The notes beneath the pieces are model-generated. The model ran no database searches and was not told where the DNA came from. It was given only the letters and a program-made list of their open reading frames with translations. A DNA stretch of 64,000 bases, from IMG/VR virus record IMGVR_UViG_3300044675_007236, one strand, 5' to 3'. This stretch comes from a virus. Taxonomy: Duplodnaviria > Caudoviricetes. Of this stretch, positions 3,570 to 59,591 are shown piece by piece. The translations under genes and the position numbers were made by a program. The first letter of the stretch is position 1. Every line of letters starts with the position of its first letter.

Positions 3570-4662
3570 CTATCTTCTTCCAAGAAACTTTGACACCTTG
3601 TTTAGCCGCTTCACTGGCAATGTAGTCGTAAAGAAAAGCTTGCTCAAAATCAGCCGGGTCGGTGTCGTCCGGCAACCATACCGAACAACAACCACCAGCT
3701 AATTCTGCTTTTAGCCGTTTTTCTGTTTCCATTAAATTTTCAAGTACTTTAGCTTTTTCTGCGTCTTTACGTACGTCTGGGTCGAGCAAAAATACAACGG
3801 AATGATTTTTAAAACTGGCTGCCAGCAGTTCAAACTGCTTTGTGGTAACAGACGCACCAAGTATTGCACCAAACGAGTCGCCGCCCCGCCAAACACTGGT
3901 AACACCCTCAACAACAATTCCGGTTTCACGTTTTCTCATGTTACCAAAATTATAAATTACTTGTCGTTTAGGTGTTCCTCTTGCGGTGTAGTATTTAGGA
4001 ACGCTTGCCAGTTTCCAATCGATGTCAAAAGGAGCTCTAGCTTGAAATCCAACCATCTTTTTGTTCATGTAGATCGGAATAATTATACGTTTACGGCACA
4101 AAGCATGACTACTGTTTTCGCACCAGTGCACGTTATAATAAACACCAAGCTTTTTTACATCGAATCCACGAATACTAGTCAACCAAACAACAGCTTGGTG
4201 ATCTTGAGGTAATTTGTCTATTCGAACAACTTCTCCGGGCCAGCTCATTCTAAATGAATCAAGATCTACTTCTTTACCCTCTACGACTTCCGCTTTTGTT
4301 AAATCAAAAAGTTTATGCCCGGTAAGCATCACTTCAAGCCGATCGTAACATTCTTGTTTTTTTAGCGATAGCGGACAACCTGCGTTAAAACAAACAACAA
4401 GCCTGTTTTGTATTCTCTGATACTCATCGACTGTTCCATATCTGTGATTAATCAAACATCGAAATCGCGTGTCGTTGCAAAACGGGCAGCAGACGGCGTA
4501 AGTCTCCCCCCAGTTTTGAATGTCAACTGTTTCTTTGTTAGTTAAAAAATCAATGCGACGCTTTCGTTCTTGTTTCTCGCTTGAATTTCCTATTCTTACG
4601 TTTTTGAAAGTCGCTTTAATTCTGTTGTAAAGAAGTAAATTTAAAGGTTTGTCTGCCATCAT
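3562..4662 (-). CDS. DNA primase (Zn finger plus TOPRIM)
   Basis: CCPFCND Zn-ribbon, RIIIPI..VGFQAR, KYY, IVVEGVTSV and LLDPD TOPRIM motifs; lies between helicase and polymerase. True start is probably the MADKPL or MSA codon near 4659. Confidence 0.88.
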   Translation of the reverse strand: MMADKPLNLLLYNRIKATFKNVRIGNSSEKQERKRRIDFLTNKETVDIQNWGETYAVCCPFCNDTRFRCLINHRYGTVDEYQRIQNRLVVCFNAGCPLSLKKQECYDRLEVMLTGHKLFDLTKAEVVEGKEVDLDSFRMSWPGEVVRIDKLPQDHQAVVWLTSIRGFDVKKLGVYYNVHWCENSSHALCRKRIIIPIYMNKKMVGFQARAPFDIDWKLASVPKYYTARGTPKRQVIYNFGNMRKRETGIVVEGVTSVWRGGDSFGAILGASVTTKQFELLAASFKNHSVVFLLDPDVRKDAEKAKVLENLMETEKRLKAELAGGCCSVWLPDDTDPADFEQAFLYDYIASEAAKQGVKVSWKKIDG

Positions 4663-6356
4663 GTCTGCTCTTGTGTTTCATTTGCTTCGTCATAGGAATT
4701 GTTAAAATCAAATTCGTCATCGACATCAGAACCATCAGCTTCCGTATTTTCTTCAATACTTGGTATAAACCCATCAATCGGTGGTGCAACAATTTGACTG
4801 TCAGCAATACTTTCTTTTCGAACTATTCGACCAAGTCTGTCAATTGTGTAACCTTCGGGCGACGTCACAGTGTTAAATAGGCCATCTACTTTAAGAAGAA
4901 CAGGATTGTGTTTTCCAGCTCGTCGCTGCTTAGAACAAGTAAGCTGACCCATGTAGTCGTCATTTAACCTACTACCTGCAAAACAGAAAGCGAAGTTTTC
5001 TCCGAAGCTTTTTGAACCTTTTGCCTGTGTGTGATCCATTCGTTTTGCTGGATTTAAGATAGCGTTGGCTTCGCCCGATAATTGATGAAAGGCCCAAACA
5101 GGGGTGTTAAAAGGCATAGCAATCCTGTTAACAAGGTTTAAGCCAGCTAGCTGATACAAAACGTCTTCCCTTTGTCTTTGCTTCGGGTCAACCGTCACAT
5201 CTCGCTGTACCATCAAGCCTACATAGTCCAAAATAACGGTAGCTACAAAATAATCAGGACCACATCGCTTTAATTCCGTTTTTATAGCCGAAGCTATCTC
5301 AGGAACACCGCGGTTTCCGGCAGTCTTGAACTTCTCGTGTCTACCGGTAAAGTCGAGGCAAACAGTGTGCTCGTTAACAATCGGCAAAACACGTTGGTAC
5401 CTTTGCATTTCAGGTTCAAATACACCGTTGGCAATCTGCTCCTTAAAAAGTACTTTTTCGTAATCGTTTGGTTGTTCTGGATCAGTGCCGAATATTGAAA
5501 CACCGTTGGTTCCCATCACTTGCAATCGTGTGCGAGATATTTGAGCTGAGTACATCAGCAACCTATCTCGAAGTTCGTTTTGCAGTGGAGCCTCGTAGGA
5601 AACTAAAACAGCCAAACCTTTTTTACCGTTCGATTCACCGCTTAAAAACCTAGCAAAAGCTTGTTTCGCAGCCGCGTACCACAGCATTACAGCCAGCGTG
5701 GTCTTGTACGAACCAAACGGAGCTAAAATAGCGTACGCTTCACCCGGAGCCGTACCGCTGTCAAGAAACGTATCAAGAAAACCAATACCGCACGATGTCA
5801 AACTTACATTTGCACGCTGATCCCAGCCGTCGGGCAAAGTTAAATTTCTACCGCCAGATATCGACAAGCCCATCAACGACTCAGTCTGTGCTGATGCTTG
5901 CTCGAAGATAGCAGGTAACTGCCCTATATCATCTAGGTCCCGTAGCTTGGCTATTGCAAGCTTCTTTTGCTGCTCGAGCAAAAACTTAGTCGCAAACTTG
6001 AAAGCAAACGATTCTGACTTTGAACTCTTTGGACCTTCTTGATCTTTAAACAAGTCAGGATCGAAGGCGTAGTAAAGAAAATCGTCTAGCTCGTCGTACT
6101 CTTCGGTATCTAGTTCCAAAAAGCCTTTTTCAATATAGCTAGCGACATCCGCATTAATCTGCGAAAGCTCAGGAAGACAGTTGTTTTCGTTAAAATAATC
6201 CCAAACCACTTTGTAAAGTAACTGATACCCTACAAAATCAAAATGACCCGCAGTCAGGCTCGATCTGAAACTTTCAAATACCTGTTCGTTTCTGAACAGA
6301 ATTGCCAGAAAAAGTTTCAAGTGAGCGTCTGACAGCGTCGATTGCTGCCCACTCAT
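4659..6356 (-). CDS. DnaB-like replicative helicase
   Basis: Walker A-like APFGSYKTT, SYEAP, VILDYVGL, AFHQLS, KQR arginine finger; adjacent to primase. Confidence 0.8.
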   Translation of the reverse strand: MSGQQSTLSDAHLKLFLAILFRNEQVFESFRSSLTAGHFDFVGYQLLYKVVWDYFNENNCLPELSQINADVASYIEKGFLELDTEEYDELDDFLYYAFDPDLFKDQEGPKSSKSESFAFKFATKFLLEQQKKLAIAKLRDLDDIGQLPAIFEQASAQTESLMGLSISGGRNLTLPDGWDQRANVSLTSCGIGFLDTFLDSGTAPGEAYAILAPFGSYKTTLAVMLWYAAAKQAFARFLSGESNGKKGLAVLVSYEAPLQNELRDRLLMYSAQISRTRLQVMGTNGVSIFGTDPEQPNDYEKVLFKEQIANGVFEPEMQRYQRVLPIVNEHTVCLDFTGRHEKFKTAGNRGVPEIASAIKTELKRCGPDYFVATVILDYVGLMVQRDVTVDPKQRQREDVLYQLAGLNLVNRIAMPFNTPVWAFHQLSGEANAILNPAKRMDHTQAKGSKSFGENFAFCFAGSRLNDDYMGQLTCSKQRRAGKHNPVLLKVDGLFNTVTSPEGYTIDRLGRIVRKESIADSQIVAPPIDGFIPSIEENTEADGSDVDDEFDFNNSYDEANETQEQT

Positions 6357-53731: not shown

Positions 53732-54495
53732 TCTTCTGCTCCTGATAAGTATACTATTTGTTGCAGCTGACGAACCACAACTTCTGTCGAACCGTTGCTC
53801 AATGGTAGCATACGCAGCTGGTCCATCAAGCCCTGCATGTTTTCCAGGTACATCGTACGCAGATCACCTGTTTTTTCCTGCTGCATTTCGTAGATAGCCG
53901 AATACATTTCCGGGTCGTCGGCATACTCTGCGTCTACTTTGCTTGCACTGTCGTCACTCATTGCAAATTTCAGGACATCGAAGGGTTTTAGTATACCCTC
54001 CTCACGGAGTACTTGTCTGATGTACTCCTGAATTTCTGCCGAAAACTCGGTGTCCTCTGGATCCTCGTTAGGAGGGTACAGCAGTAATGCTTCCGTGATT
54101 CCTAGAAGCATTTCACCGGCATCAGCAGGTTCAAACTCGTCTGGTTGAAAATCATCGCCAGAAAGGATGTTGCAGATCTCGACAAACCGAGTTACGTCTT
54201 TGTAGAAGTAATTCGTTGTCAAAATCGTTATAGCTGCCATAATTTTGTCCAACGTGATCTTAGGCAGCTTCAATTGAAAATCCTGCTCTAATTCCAGCCT
54301 GATTGTAGCCGGTGCCCAAGAGAGTACGTCTGTTCCGTACTTGTCTAAGACAAGTAGTATCAAAGGCGTTGCGTAAGCTTCTTCGGCTGCAAGCAGCGTA
54401 CGCTGGGCTAGCTTTGCAGCTTGTGGCTGACTAATCGAACTGTTGGCCCGCTTTATTAGCGATTGCATTAACGCTGACGCTGCTTTTTGATCCAT
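53728..54495 (-). CDS. Conserved large-phage hypothetical protein
   Basis: 255-aa acidic helical ORF; function not recognised. Confidence 0.5.
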   Translation of the reverse strand: MDQKAASALMQSLIKRANSSISQPQAAKLAQRTLLAAEEAYATPLILLVLDKYGTDVLSWAPATIRLELEQDFQLKLPKITLDKIMAAITILTTNYFYKDVTRFVEICNILSGDDFQPDEFEPADAGEMLLGITEALLLYPPNEDPEDTEFSAEIQEYIRQVLREEGILKPFDVLKFAMSDDSASKVDAEYADDPEMYSAIYEMQQEKTGDLRTMYLENMQGLMDQLRMLPLSNGSTEVVVRQLQQIVYLSGAEE

Positions 54496-54982
54496 GTTTT
54501 TTTCTCTGTATTAGTGCCAGGCAGTCGCAAGTTATGAATGTGATTGCAGGCTGAGGTAAGCGTTCAACTTCTTCGGCAGTCGCCGTATCCCAAAAAGAAT
54601 CATCAGTCCAAGATGGGATCCACCTGCTGTCGCATATAACCAAATTGAAAAGTCGTACGCTTTTTGCAGACAACGTCGATATCTCGATCGCGGTTATGTT
54701 GTCTGTATTTAGGAATTTGATTATATCGTAAATCTGCGACTCAGAGAACATATTTAGATGCTCAAGCCATTCCACAAGCCAAACGACTTGGTCGTGGCAA
54801 GAACCTGTAGCGTGTTTCAACCGTTTGATTTTGTTTGAATCCATAGTCAATAGCTAAAAAAAAGTCACACAAACCGTAACAAAAGTAAAGAAACAAAGTC
54901 GCAAGAGGGCTTGTTTATTTTAGGGATAAACAAGCCGCTCCTGCGACTAATAGTTTGTTACCTGGTACGAGCCTTCGGCGGT

Positions 54983-55576
54983 TTACGCCGATTTGTGTTC
55001 TTGGTCTTTTTCAATCGTCGCTTTGAAGCCGAAGTTTCCAGCAACGTGATAGCAGATGATGCCTTCGGGCCGCATGAATCCGACTCTTGCGTGGCTACCT
55101 CCCATTTGTAGTTCTTTAAGAGCTTCGTACACTCGGGCAGTGTCGAACAAGCCCTGATACAAAATAGGAACCAAACCGCAGCACGAAGGCAACCGCTGTT
55201 GGTACTTCTCAATTCGAGGGTCTGCGGTTGCAATTCGTTTTGGCTCTTGACCAGGTAAACACCACCTTGCCACGTTGAAAAGACTCCATCGCTTTTCTCC
55301 GTTGGTCAAGCCATACCCTCGCTGGATTCCACTGCCCCACCATTCTCCGAAGTGCGTACCAGGGCCTAGTTGCATCAATTCATCGCGGTGGGCCTCGGCC
55401 CACCCTGCGAATCCGAAATTGTCGTCTTGGGGCGTGATCCATCGCGACCGGCTACCGGTCAAAAACTGACCGTCCTCGGTGATGCAGACACAGGCGTTGG
55501 TCCCGTCGATCTTTTCCGTAATGATGCACTCTCGAAACATTCGAGGCATTTTCGGAAACGCTACAAACTCTTTCAT
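54983..55576 (-). CDS. RNA ligase (Rnl2-like nucleotidyltransferase domain)
   Basis: Motif I TEKIDGTN, GSRSR, FGEWWG (motif III), FNV (IIIa), PEGII (IV), C-terminal K; AGGAG RBS. Confidence 0.85.
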   Translation of the reverse strand: MKEFVAFPKMPRMFRECIITEKIDGTNACVCITEDGQFLTGSRSRWITPQDDNFGFAGWAEAHRDELMQLGPGTHFGEWWGSGIQRGYGLTNGEKRWSLFNVARWCLPGQEPKRIATADPRIEKYQQRLPSCCGLVPILYQGLFDTARVYEALKELQMGGSHARVGFMRPEGIICYHVAGNFGFKATIEKDQEHKSA

Positions 55577-55610
55577 TGTGATTCTCCTAAAGTAAAAGTA
55601 AAAGTAAAAA

Positions 55611-55730
55611 GGATCGGGCAGGTTTGGTTACCTGCTTACGGCTCGCAATCACAATCCAGCCATCGAGTGTATCTGGGATTGCTACTTTCATATCCGCTAT
55701 CTGTCGTAGTTACCGCCACGCCGCCGATCC
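55611..55730 (-). ncRNA. Atypical tRNA-like RNA 1 (120 nt, enlarged central region)
   Basis: Acceptor GGATCGG/CCGATCC, D-like arm CGT...ACG, T-like arm GCAGG-TAACCAAA-CCTGC. Confidence 0.55.
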
Positions 55731-55738
55731 AAAAAATT

Positions 55739-55816
55739 AGCAGAGGTTGGAACCCGACTCCAACACGCACAGGCACTATCTCAGCCCAGTTGTTCTTCCT
55801 CTTAAACTACTCTGCT
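55739..55816 (-). ncRNA. Degenerate tRNA-like RNA 2 (78 nt)
   Basis: Acceptor AGCAGAG/CTCTGCT, TA, D arm GTTT/GAAC, T stem GTTGG/CCAAC with non-canonical loop; irregular anticodon arm. Confidence 0.55.
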
Positions 55817-55822
55817 AATAAA

Positions 55823-55948
55823 AGACCTGGCAGGATTGGTTACCTGCTTAGGGATGGTTACGTGCCAGAACGCCCACCTAGGGTAAATTCTGTACTCATC
55901 ACTCCTATTTTAGTCTATGACTGTGTGTAACTTCCACACCGCTGGTCT
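55823..55948 (-). ncRNA. Atypical tRNA-like RNA 3 (126 nt)
   Basis: Acceptor AGACCAG/CAGGTCT (one mismatch), D arm GTGT/ACAC, T-like arm GCAGG-TAACCAAT-CCTGC nearly identical to RNA 1. Confidence 0.55.
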
Positions 55949-56089
55949 TAAGTTGATTAGGTCAACCACTCCCTTTCCAATTCACTTCGCATACTTGTTA
56001 CCAAATAATTCGTGAAATTAAGTCCGTCAACTTTCGCGAGAGCCGCCAGACACAGGAAATAGAAAAACTAGCTTTTAAAGTAAAGTTAA

Positions 56090-56181
56090 AGGACCGGCCA
56101 GGAATTACCACAATAACCTGCAGGTTCTCTTCTGGGTCACGACCTCCCAAAAGGAACACCTAGCCGTTAGACACCGATCCT
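56090..56181 (-). ncRNA. Atypical tRNA-like RNA 4 (92 nt)
   Basis: Acceptor AGGATCGG/CCGGTCCT, D-like arm TCTA/TAGG, CAGG...CCTG T-like arm with enlarged loop; T-rich trailer shared with RNA 1. Confidence 0.45.
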
Positions 56182-56210
56182 TTTAACTTAGGCAATCACA
56201 GCCGTAGTGG

Positions 56211-56510
56211 CTAGACGCCCCAGTTAGCGTCAACCGGGATGCTGAAGATTTCCGCGTTTTGCGGGATATCGACAGGCTGGTCCAGTTTCTTCAATGTAAC
56301 CTTACTGCTCTTTGGATCTTTCAGCATCCCGTCGAACCCAATCTGCTCCCACTTGAAAACGTGTACGGCATTTTGAAGCAAAAGTCTACCGTTTTCTCGT
56401 GTCAGATCTCCAGCGAAAATCCATCCGCGATCAACTACGACCACGTGCCGGTTTCCGGTAGTTTCCCGAACAAACTTTACACCATCAACAATTACAGAAT
56501 CATTAGCCAC
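56211..56510 (-). CDS. DUF6948-like small beta-rich phage protein
   Basis: HVVVVDRGWIFAG....LQNA.HVFKW..IGFDGML; from recollection, a family often found next to GDGYG-repeat genes. Confidence 0.65.
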   Translation of the reverse strand: MANDSVIVDGVKFVRETTGNRHVVVVDRGWIFAGDLTRENGRLLLQNAVHVFKWEQIGFDGMLKDPKSSKVTLKKLDQPVDIPQNAEIFSIPVDANWGV

Positions 56511-56612
56511 AATAAAACCCTTTCAAAAGACTAAACCACTCTGACAACACCGGAAACATTCTCAGTGTCGCTGCCCGCCGGTTTAAAGCAGGCAGAATAA
56601 AATCTTACTAAA

Positions 56613-56885
56613 CTAACGTCTGCCGCTTCCAGAGACAGTAGCAAAGCCGTAGCCGCAGCCGTCGCCGTCGCCGTTACCGTCGCCGTCGCCGTAACCGTAG
56701 CCGTTGCCGTTGCCGTTGCCGTTGCCGCCACCGTTGCCGTCGCTGGTGCCGTAGCCGTAGCCGTAGCTGCCGCCACCGTAGCCGTTACCGTCGCCGTAGC
56801 CGTAGCCGTAGCTGCCGCCACCGTAGCCGTTACCGTCGCCGTAGCCACGACCTACTGGTTTAAAACTTTGTTCAACGTTTGGCAT
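56613..56885 (-). CDS. Gly-rich repeat cassette, type B
   Basis: MPNVEQSFKPVG...FATVSGSGRR; downstream non-coding block shared with the 19.3-kb locus. Confidence 0.7.
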   Translation of the reverse strand: MPNVEQSFKPVGRGYGDGNGYGGGSYGYGYGDGNGYGGGSYGYGYGTSDGNGGGNGNGNGNGYGYGDGDGNGDGDGCGYGFATVSGSGRR

Positions 56886-56887
56886 AG

Positions 56888-57166
56888 CTAACTCCTTCTT
56901 CCACTGCCAGAAACAGTAGCAAAGCCGTAGCCGTAGCCATCACCGTAGCCGCAGCCGTAGCAATAAGCGGCACCGTTGCCGTAGCCAGAGCCGTAGCCGT
57001 CGTCAGAGCCGTAGCCGTAGCCGTAGCCGTAGCCGTTGCCGTAGCCGTAGCCGTTGCCGTCGCCAGAGCCGTAGCCGTAGCCGTTGCCGTCGCCAGAGCC
57101 GTTGCCGTGGCCGTAGCCGTAGCCATAGCCAGAGCCGTTGCCTACTGGTTTAAACGTATTTGGCAT
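56888..57166 (-). CDS. Gly-rich repeat cassette, type A (chimeric)
   Basis: MPNTFKPVG...; mosaic of the two 19-kb cassettes. Confidence 0.7.
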   Translation of the reverse strand: MPNTFKPVGNGSGYGYGYGHGNGSGDGNGYGYGSGDGNGYGYGNGYGYGYGYGSDDGYGSGYGNGAAYCYGCGYGDGYGYGFATVSGSGRRS

Positions 57167-58981
57167 CGCTACACCTTAGCCGTTATCTCAAACCCCACCT
57201 GATAATAAGCAGGCTTGACGTCCGGATGGTCGAACGGCAGTGGTTTACCGTCGGCGTCACGAAGGTCTTCAAGAGCTTTACCTTCTTTGTTTCGCGGATG
57301 GATAGCCTGGGCAAGTCCAGATATACCCGGACTACCCTTAATACCAGCGGCACTGGCAGCTTTTAACGCCTCATTCCTCGCGGCAGCCGAAGATAGCTCG
57401 TCGATTTGCTGCGGGAAAGTCTTAGCGTTTGACCTGACGGTAACAACCGCACGCGTGCCGCCGTTCCCCAGGATGCACTCGATAACCTCAATCATTGTAT
57501 GACCTTTCAAAATGAAACTAATCTACCTGCCAACCTGCGGCTAGCACTTCTTGTTCAGACGAATATGAGATAGTGTTCCCGTTTCCTCCGTCCCAAATGT
57601 AGCCTAGAAATACATCCTAGCTGTTTTCTAACAGAAAACCATGCTCTCGGTTACCCTCACGTTCGCGAATAACGCACAAGTAACGTGAACCGTCTGAAGC
57701 TTTAGGCCATTCTTTAAGCTCAAGTAAACCCATACTACCCTCACTTTAGTTTGAATTCTACTGCGGAAATAAAACTTCAACAAGTTCTGCGTATTTGCCT
57801 TCAACCTGTCGGGCTGTCGACTTTTCTTCTTGGGATTTTCGAACAACCTTTCGGTCAATCGCAACATCTTTCGGAGCCTGAAAAGCCATTCTCACGACTT
57901 TTGAGCTGCTTGATACCAAGTTGATCACGCTTTGCCCGTAACTGACAGGCTTGTCGTACGTGATATTCCTAGTAAAAGCAGCCTTGCCTAACGGCATAAA
58001 TCTAAACCTAGCAAAACCTTTTTCCGCGGCGAAAACTTGGATTTCGGTTTTACCAATAAAGAAACAACTTTCGTCGCTTGGGTTTTCGATGTTAGCGTCA
58101 ACCTTCACCGCGAAAGACAAGCCTCCAAATTGCTTAGACACTGATATTTTCCTTTCCGAAGTTTTCAAACTTCCACTCAAGCCGTCGTTCTGAAGCTAAA
58201 TTTTTCAGCCTTTTTTTCCAGCTAGATTCGAGAGCGTTGTCGTGAATGCATTGCAAGTTCGAAATAAGTCCTCTGTGTGCAAAGGGTACAATGACACGAT
58301 GACTTAACCTAGACCAGGTATCGCCTTCAAATTTAGCAGAGTAAGCCTTATCTGGTATTAGACAGCCTGCAGCGCACTTCCTACCCTGCTCATCACGATA
58401 AACGCAGTTTTCCTCTTGGTCTACTGACCGGCAGTTTTGCGTAAGCAGATGTTCAGCAACGCGGTCAAAACATTCTTGTTCAGTTTTGGGAAAATCTTCC
58501 CAAAGTTTCGGGTCGTAAGACATCATTCACTCCACAATATTAAAGGTTCAGTCTTTTGGTGCAGCTCAGCCAAGTCGCACGCGGTGAAGTACTCTAGCTG
58601 TCGCATCAGTTCCTCGGGCTCGAGGTGATCGTGATCACCGTCCATACCTACGAGGTGCGGTTGTTGCGGTTCAGGTTGGAAGCCATCAACCTCTTTTTGA
58701 GCGATCACGATATAGCCCCTGGCTACATAGGATCTCATTTTGCGAGCAAACTTTTGTCGAGGTTTTGCAACTTGAGGTACGGAACTCATGTTGAGAATCT
58801 TTCTTTTTACCAAACCGACGAATAAGAAACTGCGACGTTGCCGTTTCCGGAAATTTTGCTGTCGTAGACCTCTACATTATGCATGTAAACATCTACCTTC
58901 AGCATTTGTTGTCTAGGAGCAGTACAACCACATACTAAAACAATAGAAAGCAAAATCCATTTAATCATTATTTCCTCCTTG

Positions 58982-59019: not shown

Positions 59020-59509
59020 CGCTTTTAGCCTGTGGCTAGCGGCTGTTAGCTGTATCCAGTACCGCTTGAGCCGCAGAAACCACCTTGAGCACATGCAGAT
59101 TTACTTGTTCAGGTTGTGCGGTTTCTGTGGGCTGTTCTGGTTCGATCCCAAGCATAGCACATGTCTCCAAGTACTTCTGCGCATGCGGAGTTACTTGTTC
59201 AGGTTGTGCGGTTTCTGCGGGCGGTTCCGGTTTGAACGGATACACAAAAAGTGTATCTGCTGCATTCGTGTTGTTGCGGATTGCGAACTTCACGCTGCGA
59301 GACCTGAGCTCGTGGCGGATCTCTTCTTGCGAAGCTCCGTCTTTCCGCAACGCAAATTCCAGCCCGATTGAATCAGCTGGCAGACTGTGGGCCTGCCTTG
59401 CGATTCTATCGAACCACTCCTTGCGATTCTTTTTCCTCATTGAACCTATCATACTCAATTCCTTTGAAAAAGGTTTAACGAACAAAGCAACATCAAAGAT
59501 GTCACACAA

Positions 59510-59583
59510 TGGGACTGCCCGGACTTGAACCGAGAACCGAGAGATTATGAGTCTCCTGCTCTAACCTATTGAGCTACAGTCCC
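59510..59583 (-). tRNA. tRNA-Ile2 (CAT anticodon, lysidine type), no encoded CCA
   Basis: GGGACTG TA GCTC AATAGGTTA GAGC A GGAGA CTCATAA TCTC...GGTTCAAGTCC..CAGTCCC A; the GACTCATAATC anticodon arm is typical of Ile2. Confidence 0.9.
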
Positions 59584-59591
59584 AATCGAAA

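Follow-up and report, generated by a model that had tools for sequence, protein, structure and literature searches.

We analysed a 64,000-nucleotide (nt) stretch of the phage record IMGVR_UViG_3300044675_007236 (Duplodnaviria; Caudoviricetes), referred to here as the window, in which four tRNA-like elements, RNA4, RNA3, RNA2 and RNA1 in 5' to 3' order, stand upstream of an RNA ligase gene on the minus strand. The window belongs to a 175-kb IMG/VR contig of a giant phage from lake water, estimated to be 84% complete. The best reading of this array, and one in which we place moderate confidence, is that of tandem, non-decoding stable RNAs that are derived from tRNAs or scaffolded on a tRNA frame. 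RNA1 and RNA3 are members of an RNA family that recurs in uncultured phages and keeps the 'top half' of a tRNA; the folded insert that replaces the anticodon arm is stable within a type and exchanged between types, paralogues and phages. The ligase, judged by where its relatives lie, is an independently acquired, mobile Rnl2-like cassette and not a conserved partner of the RNAs.

RNA1 consists of an acceptor stem (GGATCGG/CCGATCC), a D-like hairpin (CGUGG/CUACG), an insert of ~70 nt and a hairpin at the position of the T arm (55618-55635). In RNA3 a 6/7-base-pair (bp) acceptor-like stem encloses a D-like hairpin (GUGUG/CACAC) and ~70 nt of structured insert, and the T-position hairpin lies at 55830-55847. 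The motifs that an earlier sequence-only reading had picked out in this pair are present, on the minus strand: both elements carry an 18-nt hairpin, GCAGGTAACCAA(A/T)CCTGC, preceded by TAA, both have ACAG after the D-like hairpin, and the inserts in place of the anticodon arm are unrelated to each other. A 7-bp acceptor with a directly stacked 5-bp T stem is seen in RNA1 and RNA3, while RNA2 has a 1-nt spacer at this junction and RNA4 an extended T hairpin. The T-position loops of the array (UAACCAAA, UAACCAAU, GUCGGGU and an extended loop of 14 nt) differ from the UUCRANY type that in ordinary tRNAs goes with G18G19 in the D loop, and no element has a TTCRA loop or encodes CCA, as that reading had also stated.

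A covariance model, R1, was built from RNA1/RNA3-type elements of other phages (n=18). RNA1 reaches 75.6 bits (E 4e-11) with it and RNA3 44.8 bits (E 9e-6), and both match its frame of acceptor, CGGCGUGG-type 5' part and hairpin loop UARCCAAU; at E<=10 it finds no match for RNA2, RNA4 or the spacer of ~140 nt between RNA4 and RNA3. The RNA1/RNA3 hairpin occurs a third time in a family copy at genome positions 4665-4736, inside the tRNA cluster of the phage between tRNA-Lys and tRNA-Gln. RNA1 has the same acceptor and T stem, letter for letter, as the tRNA-Gln(ttg) of this phage (genome 5103-5174), and the GGATCGG acceptor with a U-rich trailer is found in both its tRNA-Gln and its tRNA-Lys, which suggests common processing and a common origin. 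The G3:U70 pair of alanine identity occurs in 8 of 42 family members and in none of the window RNAs. We also considered whether the RCCA of the loop might mark a permuted tRNA and dropped the idea, the spacing being unfit for a discriminator plus CCA.

The view that these are neither ordinary tRNAs nor a known Rfam family has held. ARAGORN, with introns allowed and a lowered threshold, makes no call in the array; its sole call in the window is a tRNA-Met at 59509-59584, which places the array 3.3 kb from the nearest tRNA. A search of 54800-56400 against Rfam at E<=10 gave no tRNA match and left the array elements uncalled, and a permissive threshold over the window and 10 family loci returned only sub-threshold noise and flanking tRNAs. 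The fold energies of the single elements are unremarkable (z-scores of -0.4 to -1.7 against shuffles), and the case for the RNAs therefore rests on comparison with other genomes.

For this comparison a 19-letter hairpin pattern was scanned over 2.9 million viral contigs and identified 44 viral loci. At most of them, the 7 nt that follow the hairpin form a stem with a 5' segment lying 60-230 nt upstream; these acceptor-like stems vary by locus (GGATCGG, GGAGCGG, AGCAAGG, GACGGAT and others). After the 5' strand comes a D arm like that of a tRNA, CGG-CGUGG...CCACG or U-G-GCGG-AAnnAnA-CGC; the 5' parts comprise U8 and then a covarying GCGG...CGC or CGUGG...CCACG hairpin. The T-position hairpin of the family measures 18 nt, has the loop UARCCAAU and abuts the acceptor-like stem. 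Across the fetched loci R1 gave 60 matches, in whose alignment both sides have changed in six of the seven acceptor pairs while pairing holds in 99.2% of cells, a level reached by 0 of 500 shuffles; sliding the partner strand reduces pairing to 29-49%. The inserts of 43 unique members fall into 32 unrelated clusters, one of which is ~95% conserved over four phage contigs. The same frame also occurs with other 7-nt T-position loops (CGCAAAU, UUUGAAU, UGAAAAU, UUCAAGU, UUCGAAU), ordinary ones among them, and thus the family grades into RNAs with an ordinary T loop.

Canonical tRNAs lie within ~500 nt at 8 or more family loci, and the only gene families enriched beside members are RecT and a PD-(D/E)XK exonuclease, that is, ordinary early operons. 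The R1 family is undescribed, being absent from Rfam and from the papers found; a literature search on anticodon-less tRNA-like arrays or decoys in phages retrieved none. The earlier suggestion of a scaffold with variable, guide-like inserts stands as far as the constant frame and the variety of inserts go. The guide part finds no support: the longest antisense complementarity between the five elements and the remainder of the phage genome is 11-12 nt, no better than in shuffles.

Around the family loci (numbered with the prefix L), a second tRNA-frame family, GCYCYGG-AAGUUA...GAGGGUUCRAAUCCCUC-YCGGRGC, was observed, usually right after an R1 element (L093:3344-3426(-), L095:686-778(+), L105:6410-6478(+), L118:1029-1119(-), L084 and L115/L122). 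It has canonical acceptor, D and T arms, and its anticodon-position stem differs per phage (in L105, a 5-bp stem capped by GCGA). At L086:5644-5762 (-), 150 nt from an R1-family element, there is a leucine-tRNA-like sequence with canonical D and T loops and a 35-nt insert at 37/38. The same tRNA-like pair as in viral contig L118 occurs in L236, a 3.5-kb contig of a metagenome-assembled genome labelled Crocinitomicaceae; this contig is probably a piece of phage DNA that was binned with a bacterial genome, and hence no evidence of the host.

RNA4 is of a different build. Its predicted fold is a closed cloverleaf with the acceptor GGATCGG/CCGGTCC and a small D hairpin; the anticodon position is occupied by a hairpin of 12 bp capped by a loop of 9 nt, and the T-position hairpin is extended. 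The 5' GGATCGG that it was noted to have in common with RNA1 is present, and TTTAC-type repeats trail both; TTTACTTT occurs 11 times on the minus strand of the 175-kb genome, 5 of them inside this 1.2-kb region. A search with the 5'-most 17 nt of RNA4 led to a single viral contig, which carries an 88-nt homologue (L265:4027-4114(-)) with 86% identity, situated between tRNA-Arg(tct) and a mini tRNA-like element. Both form the cloverleaf, and the changes between them are one-sided only. Such a structural homologue in a tRNA cluster indicates that RNA4 is a real conserved RNA of another type. Given the R1 matches of RNA1 and RNA3 and this homologue, a chance origin of these three elements is excluded.

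RNA2 is closed by a perfect terminal stem of 10 bp; inside it lie a hairpin and, 1 nt before the 3' strand, a second one of 5 bp with the loop GUCGGGU. A descriptor of closing stem plus hairpin matches 5 times in the array, where shuffles give 1.0 and 2% of them reach 5. An exact-pattern search for RNA2 gave 0 hits in viral contigs and 13 in metagenome contigs, all of them chance matches in unrelated contexts, and it is uncertain whether RNA2 is more than chance. We rejected a match of RNA2 to the Rfam 'skipping-rope' RNA, which lies on the opposite strand and scores 20.7 bits against a cut-off of 36.7. The spacer folds no better than shuffles (z -0.37) and has no R1, Rfam or BLAST relatives, and the short ORF (open reading frame) overlapping it has no family match; the spacer is unsupported as an RNA element. 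The initial count of four tRNA-like RNAs plus a hairpin-rich stretch is thereby reduced to three, with RNA2 in doubt and the stretch set aside. The tight tandem packing of RNA3, RNA2 and RNA1 was rightly seen, although their separation is 3-5 nt and not 6-8 nt; RNA4 and RNA3 are ~140 nt apart.

The elements could instead be decaying pseudogenes, duplicated phage tRNAs that have lost their anticodon arms and are functionless. The acceptors of RNA1 and RNA4, and the T stem of RNA1, which they have in common with the tRNA-Gln/tRNA-Lys of the phage, would agree with such an origin, as would the hypervariable inserts and the absence of the whole block from close relatives. Decay is nevertheless hard to reconcile with compensatory changes that keep the acceptor paired in 99% of cells across many lineages, or with a T-position hairpin that is kept identical in phages whose flanking GC content ranges from ~43 to 67%. 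Moreover, individual insert types are conserved with stable stems, and the conservation of RNA4, structure included, extends to an unrelated contig. We consider this explanation unlikely.

Parts of the stretch were found in 24 lake-water metatranscriptome runs of 2017-2018. In four of these, contigs span the array without any sequence difference and run on into the upstream ORF. This continuity, together with the position of the elements between same-strand ORFs in the window and in L091, is also what would be expected if they were processing punctuation, namely RNase P and 3'-processing sites at which a polycistronic transcript is cut and which determine the ends of the neighbouring mRNAs or how stable these are, the ligase mRNA included. 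An acceptor/T minihelix suffices for RNase P, and it is only this 'minihelix' that is conserved. Punctuation would have no need of tandem copies 3-5 nt apart, however, and it does not account for the conservation of specific insert types or for the many members that lie in tRNA clusters and not between protein genes. It strikes us as no more probable than decay.

The ligase was characterised by profile searches. It matches Pfam RNA_ligase (PF09414) with 50 bits against a 27-bit cut-off (E 5e-13), the only such match in the phage genome, and PHROG 548 'RNA ligase' with E 1e-27. For a profile of 16 ligase homologues the best solved relative is the adenylyltransferase domain of T4 Rnl2 (1s68, 2hvq; E 8e-7). 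Within the KxDG motif K22 and G25 are invariant and D24 nearly so, K22 being one of 30 invariant columns. Only the nucleotidyltransferase domain is present, and no Rnl2 C-terminal domain was matched. The profile and the KxDG lysine identify the enzyme as Rnl2-type and not as the Rnl1 of the T4 tRNA-repair pathway. Searches of the contig for end-healing enzymes and other ligases found no kinase/phosphatase (PF13671, PF08645), RtcB (PF01139) or Rnl1 (PF09511), the last a weak negative since PF09511 matched no control genome either; no CCA-adding enzyme was found in the contig. Lacking a detectable Pnkp-like healing enzyme, the classical pathway for repair of anticodon-nuclease damage is incomplete in the 84%-complete contig. 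The premise from which a link between array and ligase had been drawn, that phage ligases repair cleaved tRNAs, concerns T4 Rnl1 with Pnkp, whereas this enzyme is Rnl2-like.

The array and the ligase belong to a larger block that is itself accessory. L124-L127, the four closest relatives with synteny, have flanking proteins at 36-81% identity to those of the window, and in them the homologues of 57169-57510 and 54431-54850 adjoin, 20-125 nt apart, indicating that the whole block between them is an insertion. The ligase moves separately. A copy of its ORF with 97% nucleotide identity is found in L003, a phage otherwise unrelated at this locus, and the homology extends from 12 nt before the ATG to the stop codon. 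In L003 an 18-nt direct repeat (3959-3976 and 4595-4612) flanks the inserted ligase, and L096, L119, L091 and L084 have the empty site, with the tRNA-like RNA kept and the ligase absent. In the window, a TTTAC-rich repeat pair (55591-55610 and about 54876-54895) brackets the ligase with its terminator. The L003 cassette follows directly after a divergent tRNA-like element (3824-3935) and its terminator, the only ligase locus with such an element upstream. Two independent landings of the ligase beside tRNA-like RNAs may point to a permissive, recombination-prone site or to a functional affinity.

One could extend this picture to the RNA elements and regard them as selfish or recombination-prone tRNA-derived cassettes, whose identical ends (GGATCGG... 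/ ...CCGATCC-TTTT) drive gain, loss and shuffling without any role as RNA. Phages with 93% identity indeed differ in copies and types (L003 has one, L096 one of another type and L091 three), element ends are identical among paralogues, and the hotspot locus has also captured a ligase with short direct repeats at the junctions. Yet no transposase, integrase or target duplication is tied to the elements, and the fact that the acceptor covaries in different classes points to selection on RNA pairing. We regard a purely selfish nature as very unlikely.

The sequence-only reading had offered, among other roles, substrate RNAs and tRNA mimics spliced or circularised by the ligase. In such a functional unit of RNAs and ligase the elements would be substrates of the enzyme (intron-bearing, split or circularised tRNA mimics) or templates for repair. 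The arrangement is suggestive: the ligase ATG, at 55576, lies only 34 nt 3' of the end of RNA1 (35 nt by the earlier count), the near-identical L003 ligase also directly follows a tRNA-like element, and some relatives with a canonical T loop can be forced into intron-tRNA calls, for example the leucine-tRNA-like sequence in L086 as Leu(taa). The two do not travel together, however. The ligase has relatives at 77 loci in viral contigs, and R1 matches none of these; tblastn finds the ligase at none of the 44 hairpin loci, BLAST of each array element against the ligase loci gave nothing, and no neighbour genes are common to the window and these loci, where most ligase homologues directly follow coding sequence. 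The covariance model thus reveals a recurrent family without ligase co-occurrence, and the four phages with an empty site keep the RNA without the enzyme. Splicing and circularisation fare no better. ARAGORN in intron mode makes no call in the array and assigns inconsistent anticodons to homologous elements elsewhere, and the RNA contigs of the four metatranscriptome assemblies contain no skipping or back-joined (circular) junctions inside 55611-56180, although contigs are weak evidence on this point. In addition, an Rnl2-like enzyme needs 3'-OH/5'-P nicks, and no Pnkp-type enzyme, RtcB or Rnl1 was found. A ligase-coupled role is, in our estimation, even slightly less probable than a selfish one. 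A single-ORF RNA ligase cassette that moves between unrelated phages is of interest in itself, and it calls for caution in reading function from this adjacency.

That the array consists of chance hairpins or terminators without any RNA gene, despite the weak single-element folds and the lack of homologues for RNA2 and the spacer, is hardly credible and could apply to these two at most, given the covariance-model matches and the RNA4 homologue for the other three and, for RNA2, a perfect 10-bp closing stem that we estimate would arise ~0.04 times per 600 nt.

Tandem non-decoding RNAs on a tRNA frame thus remain the preferred reading, and a mechanism may be proposed for them. RNase P, 3'-end processing and the CCA-adding enzyme need exactly the parts that are conserved here. 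The RNAs would be transcribed with the flanking genes and excised in a tRNA-like manner, by RNase P at the 5' end and by trimming of the U-rich trailer at the 3' end, perhaps with addition of CCA, and would then accumulate as stable RNAs. The tRNA frame would provide processing and stability, and the variable domain specificity. Their most likely job would be to occupy a tRNA-binding factor of the host or the phage, such as a tRNA-directed defence enzyme.

Several observations weigh against this interpretation. The decoy role is a best guess, and the loop at the T position departs from the canonical T loop. Covariation was assessed on an alignment that had been fitted to model R1 and so leans towards structure, although the differing acceptors are already plain in the raw pattern hits. 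The family is recurrent but rare, with dozens of contigs among the 2.9 million, and a BLAST search with hairpin plus acceptor in 50,697 GenBank phage records, of low sensitivity, gave chance-level matches only. RNA2 and the spacer have no comparative support, and the closest relatives do without the whole block, which is accordingly dispensable. Only one metatranscriptome contig stops at the 3' end of RNA1 (1 nt past it); contigs from RNA libraries are assemblies, in which carried-over DNA is possible and whose ends and depth are unusable for processing.

If tRNA-like processing and host-factor binding are true of these RNAs, they would amount to a class of phage effectors, as yet unannotated, in the arms race centred on tRNA. 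The family offers a comparative handle on such RNAs in its covarying frame, in a non-canonical T-position hairpin that agrees letter for letter with that of a group II intron class (see below), and in dozens of interchangeable middle domains. A bolder and rather improbable extension is that of a 'tRNA-chassis' repertoire, in which a constant top half would secure stability and processing by the host and a rapidly exchanging middle would act as specificity module, forming an RNA-based toolkit for anti-defence or host takeover; RNA loci would then be preferred landing sites for RNA-repair genes, the Rnl2-like ligase among them, engaged in the same tRNA-centred conflict.

The features of the locus are listed in the table below.

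Table. Array, ligase and surrounding block, from 5' to 3' on the coding strand, with the enclosing block last.
Feature	Position	Strand	Description and basis
RNA4	56091-56180	-	90-nt cloverleaf-shaped RNA; fold and homologue
Spacer	55949-56090	-	~140 nt, hairpin-rich; TTTAACTTTACTTT trailer at its start
RNA3	55823-55948	-	family member by covariance model R1; hairpin also found by pattern search
RNA2	55736-55819	-	orphan closed-stem element; sequence, fold and descriptor scan
RNA1	55611-55730	-	best R1 match in the window
RNA1 trailer / ligase leader	55577-55610	-	U-rich, (TTTTAC)x3; read directly
Ligase ribosome-binding site	55584-55588	-	AGGAG, within the RNA1 trailer
Rnl2-like ligase	54983-55576	-	197 aa; Pfam, PHROG, profile to T4 Rnl2
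Terminator-like hairpin 3' of ligase	54898-54947	-	long hairpin, then second TTTCTTTACTTTTG motif; read directly, part listed by terminator scan
Accessory block	54851-57168	-	2.3 kb; Gly/Tyr-repeat ORF, repeat ORF, 99-aa ORF, RNA array, ligase, terminator

All genes flanking the array and ligase are on the minus strand. The array occupies a 634-nt gap between an ORF of 99 amino acids (aa; 56211-56510) and the 197-aa ligase ORF; the short ORFs in this gap match no Pfam or PHROG family, and a scan for promoters and terminators gave no excess over shuffles. The 99-aa ORF has 316 relatives in viral contigs and no Pfam or PHROG family, and a synteny comparison of 80 loci through it revealed nothing else in common with the window. 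Further upstream, a 92-aa ORF (56888-57166 (-)) is made up almost wholly of Gly-Tyr/Gly-Asn-Gly repeats and is followed by a repeat region (56531-56885 (-)) in which two frames are open. At 56925-57130 the metatranscriptome contigs have variant joints and loose ends, which suggests that the repeats vary in length or that related copies exist. A 140-aa ORF at 57758-58180 (-) has a weakly CsrA-like C-terminal part (Pfam E 0.0012; PHROG 9500 E 8e-5). Outside the window, at genome C1:1206-1278 (-), ARAGORN calls a tRNA with the anticodon CUA (labelled Pyl), of amber-suppressor type, which Rfam scores as tRNA at 63 bits.

Among known systems, the canonical tRNA (RF00005) has in common with the array the 7-bp acceptor, the U8-like linker with D hairpin and the stacked 5-bp T-position stem; CCA is not encoded, and the U-rich trailer is like that of the phage's own tRNA-Gln and tRNA-Lys. 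The array differs from it in having neither a 7-nt anticodon loop nor a TΨC-type loop, and many D loops of the family lack GG. As to the ligase, T4 Rnl2 is alike in its adenylyltransferase domain with the lysine of motif I, whereas the window enzyme has only 197 aa; the T4 Rnl1-Pnkp pathway is unlike in both its ligase and its healing enzyme. Bacterial Y RNAs are sometimes linked to an RNA ligase operon (rsr-yrlBA-rtcBA). The termini of YrlA form the Ro-binding stem and its tRNA-like module is internal, whereas the termini of the window RNAs form an acceptor stem. Chen et al. (2014; PMC4201824) describe YrlA and bacterial Y RNAs, with Ro60, as non-coding tRNA mimics of which some are phage-encoded. 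Searches of our contig found no Ro60/TROVE (PF05731) and no RtcB, and Rfam gave no Y RNA or YrlA match.

By analogy of layout, the closest known counterpart is T4 species 1 RNA. Species 1 (rnaC, 139 nt) and species 2 (rnaD, 119 nt) are small stable RNAs encoded with phage tRNAs, and they adjoin tRNA-Arg in the T4 genome annotation. Stable anticodon-less tRNA-like RNAs of this kind have been known for about fifty years, and we know of no function for them. The likeness of rnaC lies in its terminal stem, a T arm just before the 3' strand, long inserted hairpins and the absence of an anticodon arm. In contrast, rnaC has a canonical UUCGAAU T loop where RNA1 and RNA3 have the 8-nt loop UAACCAA(A/U), and there is no sequence or model similarity, the best R1 score in the T4 region being 11.9 bits and outside rnaC. 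Unlike the T4 RNAs, the window array lies outside the tRNA cluster, in an accessory block, whereas the third family copy is inside one.

The T-position hairpin itself has a counterpart outside phages. At least 9 bacterial genomes, from several phyla, carry an identical 18-nt hairpin, GCAGGUARCCAAWCCUGC, in domain I of group II introns of the RF02005 class, where it lies ~70 nt from the 5' GUGCG (L217:1315-1333, L220:3387-3405, L229, L231, L233, L237, L246, L254 and L260), the remaining matches of the bacterial scan being chance matches in coding sequence. These introns resemble the window RNAs in nothing outside the hairpin, and no group II intron was found in this phage. The solved group II intron of Oceanobacillus iheyensis has, close to its 5' end, a small hairpin, D1A, that adopts a T-loop (PMC3964913), and the hairpin described here may correspond to D1A. 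A search of the group II introns for a complementary (kissing) partner of the UARCCAAU loop revealed no consistent complement. With no such partner, and with a T-loop in D1A, the hairpin is plausibly a self-contained T-loop-like module, able to replace the T arm of a tRNA.

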